IMG/VR virus record: IMGVR_UViG_2663763280_000005
Span: 1-6,874 of that record
Reading direction: 5' to 3' (one strand)
DNA from: a virus
Lineage: Duplodnaviria > Heunggongvirae > Uroviricota > Caudoviricetes
DNA: 6,874 bases
A model generated the notes under the pieces. It worked only from the letters and a program-made list of their open reading frames with translations, was not told where the DNA came from and did no database searches. Positions 439 through 6,874 of the stretch are shown here, piece by piece. A program made the translations under genes and the position numbers. Every line of letters begins with the position of its first letter. Positions within the stretch are counted from its first letter, which is position 1.

Positions 439-456
439 NNNACNGNAANGNNGNNN
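439..456. other. Run of ambiguous bases (n interleaved with a few called bases): assembly gap or low-quality join
   Basis: Sequence is nnnacngnaangnngnnn; different genes on opposite strands lie on either side. Confidence 0.95.
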
Positions 457-724
457 AAGCCGTGGCCTGACCGCATTGTTGATGGCGCTGCTGGCCATTT
501 CATTAAGTCGGGTAAAACCGCGGCAAGGGCGATTTTCAACGTTATTGCCACTGACGTTGCTGTTTATTGCCATTTTTTATGGCGGCGACGTCTGCCGTAC
601 GCTGGTGGCTAACGGCGCGATTCCCCTCATTCCTGGTTTGTGGTTAGTACCCGGACTCATGCTAATGGGCCTGCTGATGCTGGTCGCACGCGACTTCTCT
701 TTGCTGCAGAAATTTTCCCGATGA
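457..724 (+). CDS. LptF/LptG (YjgP/YjgQ) family permease, C-terminal fragment (5' end lost in n run)
   Basis: Translation ...LLMALLAISLSRVKPRQGRFSTLLPLTLLFIAIFYGG...LLQKFSR* aligns by eye with the E. coli LptF C-terminus (...VPLSVVNPRQGRVLSMLPAMLLYLLFF...). The stop overlaps the next start as ATGA (721-724), as in lptF-lptG. Confidence 0.5.
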
Positions 725-1460
725 ATGTTTTCAGTCGCTATTTAATCCGTCATCTCTTTCTCGGTTTTGCCGCCGCCGCAGGGCTATTGCTGCCGCTTTT
801 TACCACCTTCAACCTGATTAACGAACTGGATGATGTCAGCCCGGGCGGTTATCGCTGGACTCAGGCGGTGCTGGTGGTGCTAATGACCTTACCGCGCACA
901 CTGGTCGAACTTTCGCCGTTTATCGCGTTATTGGGTGGTATTGTTGGACTGGGGCAGTTATCGAAAAACAGTGAGCTTACCGCCATTCGCAGCACGGGGT
1001 TTTCTATCTTCCGTATTGCACTGGTGGCGCTGGTTGCCGGGATATTGTGGACTGTTTCGTTAGGCGCGATAGATGAGTGGGTGGCGTCGCCATTGCAGCA
1101 ACAGGCGTTGCAAATCAAATCGACCGCCACCGCGTTGGGGGAGGACGATGATATTACCGGCAATATGCTGTGGGCCAGGCGCGGTAATGAATTTGTGACG
1201 GTGAAATCGCTGAATGAACAGGGCCAGCCTGTGGGCGTGGAGATATTTCATTATCGCGACGATCTCTCGCTCGAATCCTACATTTATGCACGCAGTGCCA
1301 CCATTGAAGACGACAAAACGTGGATTCTGCATGGTGTGAATCATAAAAAATGGCTGAATGGCAAAGAAACGCTGGAAATATTAGATAATCTTGCCTGGCA
1401 ATCGACATTCACCAGTATGAATCTTGAAGAACTGTCGATGCCGGGCAATAGCTTTTCCGT
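721..1460 (+). CDS. LptF/LptG (YjgP/YjgQ) family permease, 3'-truncated
   Basis: ATG at 721. Hydrophobic N-terminal region with the [12 protein letters not shown] motif (compare LptG SELVVMQASGF), followed by a soluble beta-rich domain. The expected C-terminal TM bundle is missing: homology ends near 1460 where the phage terL fragment begins. It is divergent from canonical E. coli LptG, so probably a paralog or from another genus. Confidence 0.55.
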
Positions 1461-1573
1461 TCGTGGCGCTGGCAGGCCTGAATCACAAACTGGCAGGCCA
1501 CAATCTTTCCCCGCACGACATCACGGGCATACTGATTGGCAGCATTTACGTTGGGGTAAGATTTCCGGCTCAT
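1461..1573 (-). pseudogene. Phage terminase large subunit, N-terminal fragment only (~37 codons)
   Basis: ATG at 1573..1571 overlaps the terS stop as ATGA. Translation [37 protein letters not shown] resembles the conserved TerL N-terminus (A.QYA.DV..G.I.AC..V..ACQRHL.DL). Similarity is lost after about codon 37 and the frame stops at codon 55. Confidence 0.4.
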
Positions 1574-2575: not shown

Positions 2576-2600
2576 TAAAAAAGCCCCGCATGTGCGAGGC
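2576..2600 (-). terminator. Rho-independent terminator ending the AT-rich three-gene operon
   Basis: Minus-strand RNA is GCCUCGC-ACAU-GCGGGGC followed by UUUUUUA: a 7-bp GC-rich stem with one U-G wobble. On the plus strand the same position is a C-A mismatch, so the hairpin is better on the minus strand. It lies 26 nt downstream of the gene C stop. Confidence 0.6.
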
Positions 2601-2625
2601 TAATGATTTGCATAAATTTGTTGTT

Positions 2626-2928
2626 TCAGTCTAGCTTTATAAGTTTTACGGGTTTCTCGCCTGCTTCTACACACCAGTTGTTGTACTCATGTACAGCTCG
2701 CATCAGCTCACCATCATAGTGACCAACCTTCTCTACAAGGGATGTAAGCGATTGGGGGTTGAATTCAACAATTTCTGGTGGGATGAGGTTTACATTCCCT
2801 TTCTGATGAAGGGCATAGACAGCAGTACGTAAATCACCAATAGCTTTCATTCGTTCAGCATGAAGATCTTTGATCTTTTCATTAAGGATTTTGCAGCGAC
2901 CTATTGCTTCATAATTCAGTTCAGACAT
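2626..2928 (-). CDS. Hypothetical protein, 100 aa (moron operon gene C), no recognised family
   Basis: ATG at 2928 preceded by AGGAGG with a 5-nt spacer. AT-rich codon usage matches genes A and B. Translation MSELNYEAIGRCKILNEKIKDLHAERMKAIGDL... is a soluble, helix-prone sequence. Confidence 0.6.
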   Translation of the reverse strand: MSELNYEAIGRCKILNEKIKDLHAERMKAIGDLRTAVYALHQKGNVNLIPPEIVEFNPQSLTSLVEKVGHYDGELMRAVHEYNNWCVEAGEKPVKLIKLD

Positions 2929-2973
2929 TCTGCCCTCCTATTAAAATTCGTTATCTTTAGAGATAACTCTATA

Positions 2974-3360
2974 TTAAGAATGATTTTCTTTATCCTTAAA
3001 ATAATACCCAATTATAAATCCTAATGAAGTACCAAGGGCAGTAATCATTATTGACAATACCTTTTCCAGCTCGAGTGGCTTTAAATATTGAACGTAATCA
3101 TCAACACCTTTGCTCTTTAACTCTAAAGCCCAATTCACAACAGAATTATTATACCAAAGAACAAAAAGACAGCTAAAAATAAGAAGGCAAAAAAAGAACC
3201 AGAGAAACGTAATAGTTAAGGCGCTTCGTGTTTTACCATCAGTATGCTTAGAGTTAACAGCATTTTCCTCTGCTTTTCCAGCTGACTCTTCAATTTTTTT
3301 ATTTTCGATCCTGGCTACTTTTAATCTATCAAGGATGCTTCCAACATCTTCAATCGACAT
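2974..3360 (-). CDS. Hypothetical small membrane protein, 128 aa, two predicted TM helices (moron operon gene B)
   Basis: ATG at 3360 preceded by GGGAGGG 7 nt upstream. It overlaps the gene A stop by 11 nt. Hydrophobic stretches are ALTITFLWFFFCLLIFSCLFVLWY and VLSIMITALGTSLGFIIGYYF. The ORF-track start (TTG at 3378) is less likely. Confidence 0.6.
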   Translation of the reverse strand: MSIEDVGSILDRLKVARIENKKIEESAGKAEENAVNSKHTDGKTRSALTITFLWFFFCLLIFSCLFVLWYNNSVVNWALELKSKGVDDYVQYLKPLELEKVLSIMITALGTSLGFIIGYYFKDKENHS

Positions 3361-3661
3361 TTGAATTCCCTCCCGCAATTTTAGATAAGGAGTTCATAGC
3401 CTCAACATAGTCTGAACTTAAAGACTCATTATATTTTTCAATACTCGAAATTCCATTTTTCACAACTGGGCTAATTTTTATGTAGAGAGCAACCTGTCCT
3501 TTTTCAAACTCAGAGAGATTATCACCAGAGTTTTTGCGGATATCCTCAATTGAGTTCAATAGCTCTGTAATAAGAACCATGTGAGCATCAGCCATCGCAG
3601 CAGATGCTGCTCTGAACTCCGCAATCTTTTCAATAGCTTGTTTGATTTTTATGTTTGACAT
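3350..3661 (-). CDS. Hypothetical protein, 103 aa (moron operon gene A), no recognised family
   Basis: ATG at 3661 preceded by GGAGA 6 nt upstream. Translation MSNIKIKQAIEKIAEFRAASAAMADAHMVLITELLNSIEDIRKNSG... is soluble and helix-prone. It is the first gene downstream of an AT-rich non-coding leader. Confidence 0.6.
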   Translation of the reverse strand: MSNIKIKQAIEKIAEFRAASAAMADAHMVLITELLNSIEDIRKNSGDNLSEFEKGQVALYIKISPVVKNGISSIEKYNESLSSDYVEAMNSLSKIAGGNSNVD

Positions 3662-3922
3662 ATTATCTCCATCATATAATGTTCATATTCTCTCACTTAT
3701 CATCAAAAATGACAAGCTAAGGGAACCACTTAATTTATATGTGGAAAGAATGATTAAATTTTTCAATCTTAATATATACATCACATCAATTATTAAAAGT
3801 AACAAAACACTTGTCTACTTATAACTTTATTGTTTTTCATATTTAGGTAAGCATGAGCAATAATTATATCGTATTCTGTGTGGTATATTATATTCATCTA
3901 CTAACAAGAAAAATATACCACT
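3662..3922 (-). promoter_or_regulatory. AT-rich non-coding leader; probable promoter/operator region for the three-gene operon
   Basis: About 260 nt with no convincing ORF and several TATA-like hexamers on the minus strand. Contains a 9-bp perfect inverted repeat, gtggtatat (3880-3888) / atataccac (3913-3921). I could not pin down a single -35/-10 pair. Confidence 0.3.
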
Positions 3923-4193
3923 TCAAATTGTACGTTTGTATTTCTTATGCATACCGCGCTCAACAGAGTCACCAGGAATATGGTTAATAGTCTGCTGTAT
4001 ATTTCTGGCCTCTTCCGTTGCCTCTACACGGTGTCCTGCTGCTGAGTGCTTAGCCGCTGCGTTAACTTCAGTGTATAACAGAGCAGTTTTAACCTCTTCT
4101 TTTACTAGTGCCACGGATACGCCCTAGGCCAACAACTCCAGCGATAACAGTGATAACCAAAGCAACCAGTCCAATAAATCTTTCGATACTCAT
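3923..4193 (-). pseudogene. Possible frameshifted gene for a small membrane-anchored protein (two overlapping frames)
   Basis: ATG at 4193 gives MSIERFIGLVALVITVIAGVVGLGRIRGTSKRRG* (stop 4091..4089). A +1 frame opens 4 codons before the track's GTG at 4114 and gives ...ALVKEEVKTALLYTEVNAAAKHSAAGHRVEATEEARNIQQTINHIPGDSVERGMHKKYKRTI* (to 3923). One indel near 4110-4125 would fuse them into a protein of about 90 aa with an N-terminal TM anchor. No clear SD precedes the ATG at 4193. Confidence 0.3.
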
Positions 4194-4708: not shown

Positions 4709-5181
4709 GCCTCAATCTCTCTTACCGTTCCGCCAGCTTCTTTGAATTTTGCAATCAGGCTGTCAGCCTTATGCTCGAACTGACCGTAACCAGCCCCCGG
4801 CAGTGAAGCCCAGATATTGCTGCAACGGTCGATAGCCTGACGAATATCGCCGCGATCAATCATTGGTAAAGCGCCACGCTCTTTAATCTGCTGCAGCGCA
4901 ACAGCATCCTGGCTTTTCGGAGAGAAGTCTTTCAGGCCAAGCTGCTTACGGTAGGCATCCCACCAACGGGAAAGAAGCTGGTAGCGTCCGGCGGCTGTTG
5001 ATTTGAGTTTGGGGTTTAGCGTGACAAGTTTGCGAGGGTGATCGGAGTAATCAGTGAAGAGTTCACCACCGACAATAACGTCATAACCGTGGTTACGTGT
5101 CGGTTGTCGTCCGTTATCCGTTCCTTCTGACCAAGCCACCATATCAAGGAAAGCTTTACGCTGGGAATTTAGTACCTGCAT
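4705..5181 (-). CDS. R: Endolysin, lambda R-type lytic transglycosylase
   Basis: The 158-aa product [61 protein letters not shown]... is near-identical to lambda R ([42 protein letters not shown]...). AAGGAG lies 6 nt upstream of the ATG at 5181. Confidence 0.95.
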
Positions 5182-5184
5182 AAA

Positions 5185-5511
5185 TTACTCCTTAGAGCCA
5201 CCAAATTTGTTACCGATTACTCGCATTGCAGCCCCACGAATAGCATCGACACCGATCAGCCCCACCCCACCACCAATGGCAACAGAAAGTGATTTAGGCC
5301 ATCCGACATACTCAAGAGCGGATGCAAAGGTCAGCGTCAGAGCGCCACATAGCAAAATCTCAAGCGTTTTTCGCTTCCAGCCACCACCACCGCCAAAATA
5401 GGCGATGCGCAAACCAGCCATAACGATCGACATAATCACTGCGCCCAGCGGTGTGTCTCCACGCCACCAGCTCTGGACCAACTCCAACCAGGTATTTGGG
5501 TTATGAGGCAT
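5185..5511 (-). CDS. Holin (three-TM class I, lambda S-like architecture)
   Basis: 108 aa directly upstream of the endolysin, with a 3-nt gap. Three hydrophobic segments (PLGAVIMSIVMAGLRIAYF, LEILLCGALTLTFASALEYVG, LSVAIGGGVGLIGVDAI) and a charged C-terminal tail. There is no dual-start motif: the in-frame upstream codons are Q, L, stop. Confidence 0.75.
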   Translation of the reverse strand: MPHNPNTWLELVQSWWRGDTPLGAVIMSIVMAGLRIAYFGGGGGWKRKTLEILLCGALTLTFASALEYVGWPKSLSVAIGGGVGLIGVDAIRGAAMRVIGNKFGGSKE

Positions 5512-5650
5512 TTGTAGTTATCTCTCACCTCGCTGATACAGCAGGTGCAAATTGAGGGAACATCATGTACCGCAAATCAGAAGCGGAAACGTCAAAGAAG
5601 CCGAACCAATGGATAACTGCGGAATAGGCCAGAACCAACGAATCCCCAGC

Positions 5651-5684
5651 CCCAGAAACGACAAAACCCGCTCGACGCGGGTTT
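5651..5684 (-). terminator. Intrinsic terminator-like hairpin upstream of the holin (tR'-like late terminator candidate)
   Basis: Perfect 8-bp stem aaacccgc (5664-5671) / gcgggttt (5677-5684) with loop tcgac. On the minus-strand RNA it is followed by UUUUGUCGUUUCU (5663..5651). On the plus strand the T tract is shorter (tttaag). Confidence 0.45.
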
Positions 5685-5800
5685 AAGCTGTGTGGCGAAG
5701 TAACCACTCTTAACAGATTATGATAGTTTTTGCGTACGCGTTAGTAATTTATTATGCTCTTTACAATTGTTAGCTTAACCGCATGGAATTGACCAAAAAA

Positions 5801-6720
5801 ATGAGCAAAGTAAGCATACGCCACGTAATCGTTCATGAGCTCTTAAAAGAATCTAATAAAGACTTCGATCACTCCAAACCATACAATCTTCGTGATACAG
5901 AACTAGATAAAACAAATGATATAGTAAAAAAATTAGTAGACGGTGTTATTGATTTGTATGGTTCAAAAGGGAACTCAGCGCATTATGGTGTTTTTATTAA
6001 AAATAAAACAAAGCAAGGCCCTATACCAGAACTATTTCATAAATACTCTTTAGTTCAACAATCTGTTTCAAGTGATTTCATTGAATTATCGAAGGAAGTT
6101 ATGAAACAAATGTATAAATCTGCTCAAGAGCAGATTTGGGCTTCTGGAGGATATGTTGTTTTTACTGATTATATTTTATCTGGTTTCCGTTATCTATTGG
6201 TTACAATGATCAAAAAAACTAATGGCGTAACTATTAGTGAAAATTTAGAGCCAGAGGAAATGATTCACTTAGAACTTGGTAATATTAACCAAGCAGCAAA
6301 AATAAATTTCAGATATTATGAAGAATACCAAAAAGCAGATGACTTAAAAAAAACAGACTTAAGTTATCTAAGCTTTATAAGCAAAACTACGGGACAGTCA
6401 GCGGCAGCATATTTTATAGCAGCATTAGGATGTGACAAGGGGATTGCTTCAGCAGGTGCAACCCGTAAGTTACCAGATGAAATAAGGCGTTTCTTTAAGA
6501 AAGAACCTCTTTTAAAAAATCAAGCAGAGTCATTTAGAAATGATGTTATCAAATACTTAGAAAAGCAATTTGACAACGAGCACTCTGCAAGGCTTTCTGA
6601 TATCGAATCGCTTGCTTCAGGCCATATGTCCGATTTAAAAGAGGAAGAAAAAACAGAACTTGTTGATAAATTAATGAAACACCTCAATAGTGAGGAAGTC
6701 AGAATCCCATCAGAGTTCGT
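5801..6720 (+). CDS. NA37/NdpA (YejK) family nucleoid-associated protein, divergent low-GC paralog; 3' end uncertain
   Basis: From the ATG at 5801 the translation MSKVSIRHVIVHELLKE...ASGGYVVFTDYILSGFRYLLVTMIKK...YLSFISKTTGQSAAAYFIAALG aligns by eye with E. coli YejK/NdpA (MSLDINQIALHQLIKRDE...[25 protein letters not shown]...[22 protein letters not shown]). The true C-terminus is obscured, because the open frame runs through n 6723 into unrelated sequence. Confidence 0.6.
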
Positions 6721-6723
6721 AAN

Positions 6724-6873
6724 AGTAAATTGCCCTGCGACGGGTCAAAAGCATTCAGCCCCCAAATGCGTAAGTCTGGCCTGTTCCGCACTCAACTACG
6801 GGCGATTTTGCGCGCTGCCAGTTTTGGCAACGCCCAGTTGATGATCCCGATGGTTCACAGCCTCGATCAGATC
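6724..6873 (+). CDS. PEP-utilising enzyme (PTS enzyme I family) internal fragment
   Basis: Translation in the frame of the codon at 6781 gives ...[32 protein letters not shown], which resembles PtsI ...[30 protein letters not shown]. It is a family member, not PtsI itself. It runs off the window end. Confidence 0.5.
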
Positions 6874-6874
6874 T

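Follow-up and report, generated by a model that had tools for sequence, protein, structure and literature searches.

The segment at positions 457-1464 of the window, that is, of the whole 6,874-nucleotide stretch of DNA that was analysed, is probably a piece of an accessory lptF2-lptG2 operon that belongs to the ceramide locus of Escherichia coli and exports a ceramide-based lipid by way of LptB2. Our own observations in favour of this reading concern the identity of the fragments, their paralogy to the canonical lptFG genes, the fold, the conservation of the coupling helix, the synteny with ceramide genes, and the lack of a dedicated ATPase, LptC or LptA.

The segment contains two truncated genes, both on the plus strand. 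The first one, at 457..724 (coding positions 458-721, stop codon TGA at 722-724), corresponds to the 3' end of lptF2, codons 269-356 of 356, which encode the last transmembrane (TM) helices, and is 100% identical to positions 8001-8268 of L001. The second, at 721..1464, is the 5' part of lptG2, codons 1-248 of 359, and is 100% identical to L001 8265-9008; it spans TM1-TM3, the coupling helix with residue E85, and most of the periplasmic beta-jellyroll. When compared with the Pfam profile PF03739 (LptF_LptG), the 88-aa LptF2 fragment (458-721) matched profile positions 277-352 (E=3.9e-08, 33.2 bits) and the 248-aa LptG2 fragment (721-1464) matched positions 1-246 (E=2e-43, 149.2 bits). Both scores are above the gathering threshold of 27.9 bits and, as judged from the sequence, the assignment of the two open reading frames (ORFs) to the LptF/LptG family is far beyond chance. 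This agrees with an earlier note on this DNA, which had placed two adjacent ORFs of this family at 457-1460. The ATGA overlap of stop and start codons that it described can also be read directly from the plus strand at 721..724, where the lptG2 start codon ATG (721-723) overlaps the lptF2 stop codon TGA (722-724), an arrangement that suggests translational coupling. The homologous block comprises 1008 bp and is 100% identical to the chromosome of E. coli M8 and of many other strains; both genes are cut off at its ends. The 311-aa ORF listed at 640-1575 is a chimera, formed by reading on into prophage DNA that is unrelated to the pair.

The window as a whole is chimeric, with unrelated pieces of E. 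coli and prophage DNA joined by assembly or concatenation. Positions 1-235 are rpoB, with 100% identity to E. coli, and are followed by part of an accessory MFS-transporter gene (236-438) that is located ~1 Mb from lptF2-lptG2 in E. coli M8. Between this fragment and that of lptF2 lies a low-quality, N-rich junction to which no strand applies (439..456), which reads nnnacngnaangnngnnn; the sequences that flank it map ~1 Mb apart in strain M8, and it represents an artefact that lies outside the gene pair. Beyond the lptF2-lptG2 block (457-1464), a prophage late and lysis region extends from 1464 to ~6722, with genes for a P27-family small terminase, an HNH endonuclease, an Rz-like lysis protein, a GH24 lysozyme, a holin and a nucleoid-associated protein, and the window ends with ptsP (6776-6874). 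These remaining pieces are also E. coli at 100% identity.

A chimeric breakpoint, again without strand, was located at 1464..1465, between codon 248 of lptG2 and prophage DNA with the small-terminase gene on the minus strand; the match to the native locus stops at 1464 and the match to the prophage begins at 1464. Because this junction is clean and contains no Ns, it could be read as a genuine prophage insertion or rearrangement that truncated lptG2 in the source strain. We consider this very improbable, given that the prophage side is the interior of the small-terminase gene instead of a phage attachment end, that the window also joins rpoB to the MFS gene and the nucleoid-protein gene to ptsP within a few hundred bases, and that the join between lptG2 and the prophage terminase was absent from all 5426 complete E. 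coli genomes searched. In the same set of genomes, at least 80% of the window was found at one place in 0 of 5426. The odd neighbourhood of rpoB, the MFS gene, the prophage and ptsP is therefore attributed to the chimera and holds no biological signal, and since the window is chimeric, gene-neighbourhood inference inside it is unsafe.

At the native locus of E. coli M8, the genes are ordered gss, pitB, yghT, yghS, a yghR-like P-loop gene, yghQ, a 274-aa gene, a ytfJ-family gene, lptF2 and lptG2. Full-length YghQ at this locus is a 449-aa MOP-flippase-like protein, the 274-aa protein encoded upstream of the ytfJ-like gene had no family match, and the complete lptF2 and lptG2 products have 356 and 359 aa, respectively. 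The run that ends in lptF2-lptG2 converges on spt, the acyl carrier gene acpR, the gene for an NAD-dependent epimerase/reductase (epi/cerR) and that for the fatty acyl-AMP ligase, aasR, beyond which lie yghO (cerS) and then glcC; the stop codon of lptG2 is 34 bp from that of spt in E. coli M8. In the search against NCBIfam, Spt scored 600 bits on the serine palmitoyltransferase model NF047599, and the AasR ligase 875 bits on the FAAL model.

The lptF2-lptG2 pair is carried by 4122 of the 5426 complete E. coli genomes (76%), and ~24% are without it; the whole 8.4-kb island is present in 4064 of them. K-12 lacks the pair through an IS5-associated deletion: in MG1655, IS5 occupies the place of L001 5491-13873 (8.4 kb). 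What is missing there comprises the 274-aa and ytfJ-like genes, lptF2-lptG2, spt, acpR, epi and aasR, as well as the 3' end of yghQ and the first 40 nt of yghO. It is because of this deletion that the pair had looked foreign to E. coli when the sequence was first read.

LptF2 shares 28.5% identity with LptF of K-12, and LptG2 ~28% with LptG, in line with the initial impression that neither sequence is a canonical E. coli LptF or LptG. All 5426 complete E. coli genomes have the canonical genes, in the arrangement pepA-lptF-lptG, and the second pair occupies a different position, away from pepA, between yghQ and spt. The pair lptF2-lptG2 is a second, accessory and non-essential LptF/LptG-family permease pair, paralogous to canonical lptFG, which was one of the two options left by the earlier note (a second YjgP/YjgQ paralog pair). 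The other option, that these genes are the ordinary LPS-exporting LptFG of a distant genus, present in a window that mixes organisms, would fit with their annotation in RefSeq/PGAP as lptF and lptG. They receive these labels because both pass the NCBIfam equivalog cutoffs: full-length LptF2 scored 319 bits on TIGR04407 (cutoff 230) and full-length LptG2 305 bits on TIGR04408 (cutoff 240). We give this option practically no credence, since E. coli chromosomes match the fragment at 100% identity, 76% of the complete genomes contain it, all the genomes that bear the pair also hold canonical lptFG at a separate locus, K-12 is viable without the second pair, and the rest of the window is likewise E. 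coli at 100% identity. The assignment of the pair to the TIGR04407 and TIGR04408 equivalogs is an over-call. Thus, the high-identity hits to bona fide LptF/LptG, which had been named beforehand as the outcome that would make the pair unremarkable, do exist in a formal sense (RefSeq label, 100% identity), but not in substance. The conflict that had been perceived with the E. coli-like rpoB and the lambda-like segments nearby disappears once the chimeric nature of the window and the K-12 deletion are taken into account.

To place the pair in a wider context, we scanned one genome per GTDB species and obtained 80 loci, from Escherichia, Shimwellia, Sodalis, Serratia, Pluralibacter, Pseudocitrobacter, Citrobacter, Erwinia, Pantoea, Mangrovibacter, Rahnella, Tatumella, Rosenbergiella, Klebsiella indica, many Pseudomonas, Azotobacter, Azomonas, Stutzerimonas and a Porticoccaceae MAG. 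The lptF2 gene was directly upstream of lptG2 in 80 of these 80 species-level loci. The two genes overlap through ATGA in 71 of 81 loci and through GTGA in 3, and the canonical lptF/lptG junction of K-12 is TGATG, a 1-nt overlap unlike the ATGA of the paralogs; the description of the overlap as "lptFG-style" consequently holds for the overlap as such but not for the canonical K-12 style. Of the five ceramide genes (Spt, AcpR, Epi, AasR, YghO), three or more were present within 10 kb in 77 of the 80 loci, and the full set in 52. Of the three loci below this number, two are truncated by the end of a contig, and Azomonas macrocytogenes alone is without any of these genes. The order and orientation of the genes around the pair vary by lineage and the ceramide linkage stays; its maintenance despite the rearrangements speaks for a functional tie.

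With E. coli LptB, LptC and LptA as tblastn queries, no paralog of LptC or LptA was detected in the 81 loci, nor was an LptB ortholog found beside the pair in any of them, which answers the earlier suggestion to look for an associated ABC ATPase at the native locus. The ABC genes that do occur in these loci encode generic ATPases (25-34% identity to LptB) at least 7 kb from the pair, or, in Pseudomonas, MsbA-like exporters. Since this search of the 81 loci gave generic ABC ATPases only, we rejected the idea of an ATPase or bridge proteins dedicated to LptF2G2.

The AlphaFold model of full-length LptG2 (mean pLDDT 79) placed helices on either side of a beta-jellyroll at residues 150-227, and in a Foldseek comparison it was similar to the LptG chains 6mjp_G and 6mit_G (TM-score 0.85-0.88), with LptF chains giving a worse fit. 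According to this model, LptG2 has the full LptG fold, with six TM helices and a periplasmic beta-jellyroll between TM3 and TM4. In LptB2FG, we take LptF E84 and LptG E88 to be the coupling-helix glutamates that dock the ATPase LptB. The equivalent residue is E85 in both paralogs, and it was invariant in 79 of 79 LptF2 and 80 of 80 LptG2 sequences. The positions that form the hydrophobic cavity are retained conservatively in LptF2G2. E84 and E88 are not mentioned in PMC6744409, which reports, for Shigella/E. coli, that the lipid A phosphates and the core are contacted by K34, K40, K41, K62, R133 and R136 of LptG, and by R33, K317, K322 and R263 of LptF (Tang 2019). Several of these positions are changed in LptG2 (K34 to N/D, K40 to D/E, K41 to D, R133 to L), and others are kept, namely K62 (R59) and R136 (K/R) of LptG, and R33 (R34) and K317 (R/K) of LptF. 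The replacement of the TM1 lysines, together with the gain of an acidic residue at I66, was observed in all 80 LptG2 sequences of the clade. The same non-lysine TM1 pattern is present in the LPS-exporting LptG of P. aeruginosa (5x5y_G, 'FIDELNDIS ... PRRAYDM') and Acinetobacter (8frl_G), as well as in most of the 150 nearest representatives of the family. The acidic residues of TM1 were therefore dropped as a possible signature of a non-LPS substrate, and the pocket residues are not diagnostic of the substrate, because true LPS-exporting LptG proteins share the pattern.

These structural features bear on whether LptF2G2 could act as a reserve LPS exporter, or as one specialised in, for instance, a variant core or a modified lipid A, with its proximity to the ceramide genes being incidental. 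The complete LptG fold with its hydrophobic cavity, the conservation of several phosphate contacts (R59 for K62, K/R for R136, R34 for R33, R/K for K317) and a TM1 motif like that of the LPS-exporting LptG of P. aeruginosa would all be compatible with such a role. It is nevertheless unlikely, considering that the linkage to spt, acpR, epi, aasR and yghO is preserved across Enterobacterales, Pseudomonas, Azotobacter and the Porticoccaceae MAG despite rearrangement, that the locus has no conserved LPS biosynthesis genes, and that genetic evidence from Caulobacter links the analogous pair to sphingolipid and not to LPS.

In comparison with the canonical E. coli extractor LptB2FG(C) (yjgP/yjgQ; PDB 6MHU, 6MI7, 6S8H), the accessory pair has in common the PF03739 domain, the fold, the adjacent F-then-G gene order with overlapping stop and start codons, the coupling-helix glutamate, and a cavity that is mostly hydrophobic in both. 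It differs in being only ~28% identical, in its location at another locus, in its dispensability, in the ATGA instead of TGATG junction, and in the loss of K34, K40, K41 and R133 of LptG as well as of the residues with which LptF contacts the core.

A profile built from the LptG2 clade gave at least 368 bits for its members versus 178 for canonical E. coli LptG. In an exhaustive search of 1.84 billion representatives with this profile, the scores fell from ~300+ bits to a continuum from 270, and in a neighbour-joining tree the sequences derived from the loci formed a 14-leaf clade, with canonical LptG outside. A cluster look-up of the top profile matches returned Pseudomonas, Methyloversatilis and Salinisphaera, and no alphaproteobacteria were named among these matches. 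In a published BLAST comparison, CC_1156 and CC_1155 of Caulobacter showed 24% identity to Avin_44330 and Avin_44340 of A. vinelandii (E=1e-06 and 9e-13; PMC11324152 Table S2E). Because the identity is only ~24%, the gammaproteobacterial and the Caulobacter 'F2G2' groups may not share one origin and could represent independent duplications.

The closest known system is LptF2/LptG2 of Caulobacter crescentus (CCNA_01214/CCNA_01213, that is, CC_1156/CC_1155). Like the E. coli pair, it is a second pair alongside canonical LptFG and has retained the coupling-helix glutamates; it is encoded inside the spt-acpR-cerR-aasR-cerS locus, where a flippase gene is present but none for a dedicated ATPase. 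In contrast, E. coli is without LptC2, its flippase candidate is the MOP-type YghQ and not an MsbA-like protein, and its locus has no CpgB-type kinase; since the head-group genes differ from those of Caulobacter, the E. coli cargo is probably not CPG2. The pairs of Pseudomonas luteola and Azotobacter vinelandii (Avin_44330/44340) belong to the E. coli clade, with 47-59% identity (loci L044, L074, L081), and are linked to spt, but they are accompanied by CPG genes of the Caulobacter type (DAGK-type kinase, MobA-like NTP transferase) and by an MsbA-like ABC exporter. In Sphingomonas wittichii, the LptF/G homologs of the sphingolipid cluster, Swit_3905/3906, have been reported as the sole LptFG of the genome (PMC11324152).

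The accessory genes of the Enterobacterales loci encode the P-loop kinases YghR/S/T, a MOP flippase, the 274-aa orphan and a YtfJ-like periplasmic protein, and no DAGK-type CpgB was found there; those of the Pseudomonas loci encode a DAGK-type kinase, a MobA-like NTP transferase and an MsbA-like ABC exporter. Because the accessory gene sets differ, the head group of the Enterobacterales cargo is probably different from the Pseudomonas/Caulobacter type. The fact that the Enterobacterales set is unlike the CPG set of Caulobacter and Pseudomonas could also be taken to mean that the cargo is not a classical ceramide but a free long-chain base, an N-acyl amino-alcohol or a derivative phosphorylated by YghR/S/T, or even that the pair is part of an importer or remodelling system. 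To our knowledge, every characterised transporter of the LptFG family is an extractor or exporter, which speaks against import. Moreover, the five genes that suffice to make dihydroceramide are all there and conserved, and E. coli BL21 supplied with 3-oxo-sphinganine produced ceramide-like spots (PMC9386255), so we regard these alternatives as rather doubtful.

The enzymes of the E. coli locus have been studied in strain BL21, in which ECD_02850-02854 correspond to yghO/aca, aasR, epi, acpR and spt (Padilla-Gomez et al. 2022, PMC9386255). That work described biochemical activity for SPT, AcpR and AasR of E. coli B and a preference of SPT for acyl-AcpR. As 3-oxo-sphinganine was undetectable in extracts of BL21 with the empty vector (PMC9386255), the locus may be silent under laboratory conditions. 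In the literature that we found, the work on E. coli was at the enzyme level and no native sphingolipid has been reported.

Regarding transport, CC_1156/CC_1155 were named "LptF2/LptG2" and, along with a flippase, were proposed to carry phosphosphingolipids to the outer membrane; orthologous clusters of A. vinelandii and P. luteola were listed in the same study (Olea-Ozuna et al. 2024, PMC11324152). More recently, it was reported that lptF2, lptG2 and lptC2 of Caulobacter can be deleted only in spt or cpgB deletion backgrounds, that LptF2 and LptG2 co-purify, and that each of them binds the only LptB present (Uchendu, Isom and Klein 2026, bioRxiv 10.64898/2026.04.12.717747). The same authors noted lptF2/lptG2 in many sphingolipid loci of alpha- and gammaproteobacteria, and included the locus of E. 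coli UTI89 in their Fig 2B. The E. coli pair is thus already recognised in the literature, and the finding is real but not new; with the locus and the export idea published, its value as a discovery is small. What the present analysis adds are by-products: it shows the window to be chimeric, defines the boundaries of the K-12 IS5 deletion, puts numbers on distribution and synteny, and warns of the duplicate RefSeq labels.

Taken together, the genomic context and the Caulobacter work point to a sphingolipid or ceramide as the substrate of LptF2G2, by analogy. The earlier description of a "paralog pair of unknown substrate" was right about the pair, and the word "unknown" was too pessimistic. 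For the substrate, the sharing of LptB and the downstream route, our proposal follows the Caulobacter system. The co-encoded flippase YghQ would first flip the ceramide-based lipid to the outer (periplasmic) leaflet of the inner membrane. LptF2 and LptG2, by the same analogy, would form a heterodimeric 12-TM permease with two periplasmic beta-jellyroll domains, onto which the housekeeping LptB2 ATPase dimer would dock through the coupling-helix glutamates of both subunits. LptF2G2 would then extract the lipid from that leaflet and pass it toward the outer membrane, with the existing LptC/A/DE bridge as its probable onward route.

A bolder extension, which we put forward tentatively, is that most E. 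coli strains, but not K-12, may make a ceramide-based outer-membrane lipid that has gone undetected; its head group, installed by the YghR/S/T kinases and the 274-aa protein, would be unlike that of CPG2, and the lipid would be flipped by YghQ and exported by LptB2-F2G2 in competition with LptFG for LptB and the bridge.

The RefSeq/PGAP labels lptF and lptG on both pairs make it seem that ~75% of E. coli genomes duplicate essential LPS-export genes, and these duplicate labels can mislead analyses of essentiality, pan-genomes and drug targets. K-12 is a natural deletion mutant of the entire ceramide and transport island, and the E. coli pair offers an accessible system in which to test whether LptB and the Lpt bridge serve the export of sphingolipid as well as that of LPS, a question of relevance for Lpt-targeting antibiotics. 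Should the bolder reading above hold, a major pathogen would couple its LPS and sphingolipid traffic, to which the usual laboratory strain would be blind.

The window is a chimeric assembly or concatenation, since the fragments that it contains lie side by side in no complete genome. Its pieces are mutually unrelated E. coli fragments strung in a chain: an rpoB fragment (1-235), a fragment of an MFS transporter gene (236-438), an N-rich stretch (439-456), the fragment of lptF2G2, the accessory LptF/LptG-family permease pair (457-1464), a prophage segment (1464 to ~6722), 50 unplaced nucleotides with one N at 6724, and a ptsP fragment (6776-6874). Inside the prophage segment, an AT-rich block (2600-4100, minus strand, 27-37% GC) with three small ORFs on the same strand (2626-2928, 2974-3378 and 3350-3661) separates the HNH endonuclease from the lysis cassette; this block resembles a moron or another accessory insert. 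An AT-rich gene (5783-6722, plus strand), whose product is called a nucleoid-associated protein in the annotation of related genomes, adjoins the prophage lysis genes and is truncated at ~6722 by another chimeric junction.

In the native locus of E. coli M8, the paralogs (7198-9344) are named 'lptF' and 'lptG' by PGAP, as they generally are across RefSeq annotations, because they score above the cutoffs of the LptF and LptG equivalog models TIGR04407 and TIGR04408. As a result, each name occurs twice per genome in ~75% of E. coli genomes. Two other proteins of this locus had no match in Pfam or NCBIfam: YghO (13834-14976), the proposed ceramide N-acyltransferase, and a 274-aa protein (5771-6595) encoded upstream of the ytfJ-like gene, which is conserved together with the locus across Enterobacterales at 49-96% identity.

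When K-12 MG1655 (5147-6341 of its extracted locus) was compared with the M8 locus (5491-13873), IS5 (insH9) was found in place of 8.4 kb comprising the yghQ 3' end, the 274-aa orphan, the ytfJ-like gene, lptF2, lptG2, spt, acpR, epi, aasR and the yghO 5' end. Therefore, yghQ and yghO of K-12 are truncated remnants of the ceramide locus.

There were only two clear exceptions to the synteny of lptF2G2 with the ceramide genes. The locus copy of E. coli ECMA0423 is patchy and divergent (LptG2 67%, AcpR 99%), and neither Spt nor YghO was detected in it; in Azomonas macrocytogenes, lptF2G2 is present but the 10 kb around it contain none of the ceramide genes. Separately, the nominal alphaproteobacterium Martelella alba BGMRC 2031 carries an enterobacterial-type locus (64-78% identity), and the nominal Xanthomonas sp. 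WHRI 1810A a Pseudomonas-type one; in both cases the probable cause is mislabelling or contamination of the assembly, or else a recent transfer.

The accessory genes of the Pseudomonas capeferrum locus lie at 707-2446, 7964-8866 and 11064-12077. In the Pseudomonas-type locus, an MsbA-like ABC exporter adjoins spt, a MobA-like NTP transferase precedes lptF2, and a DAGK-type (CpgB-like) kinase is located downstream of lptG2, whereas the Enterobacterales locus has instead a MOP flippase, three P-loop kinase-like genes, and the genes for the 274-aa orphan and the YtfJ-like protein. The head groups attached by the Pseudomonas and Enterobacterales loci probably differ.
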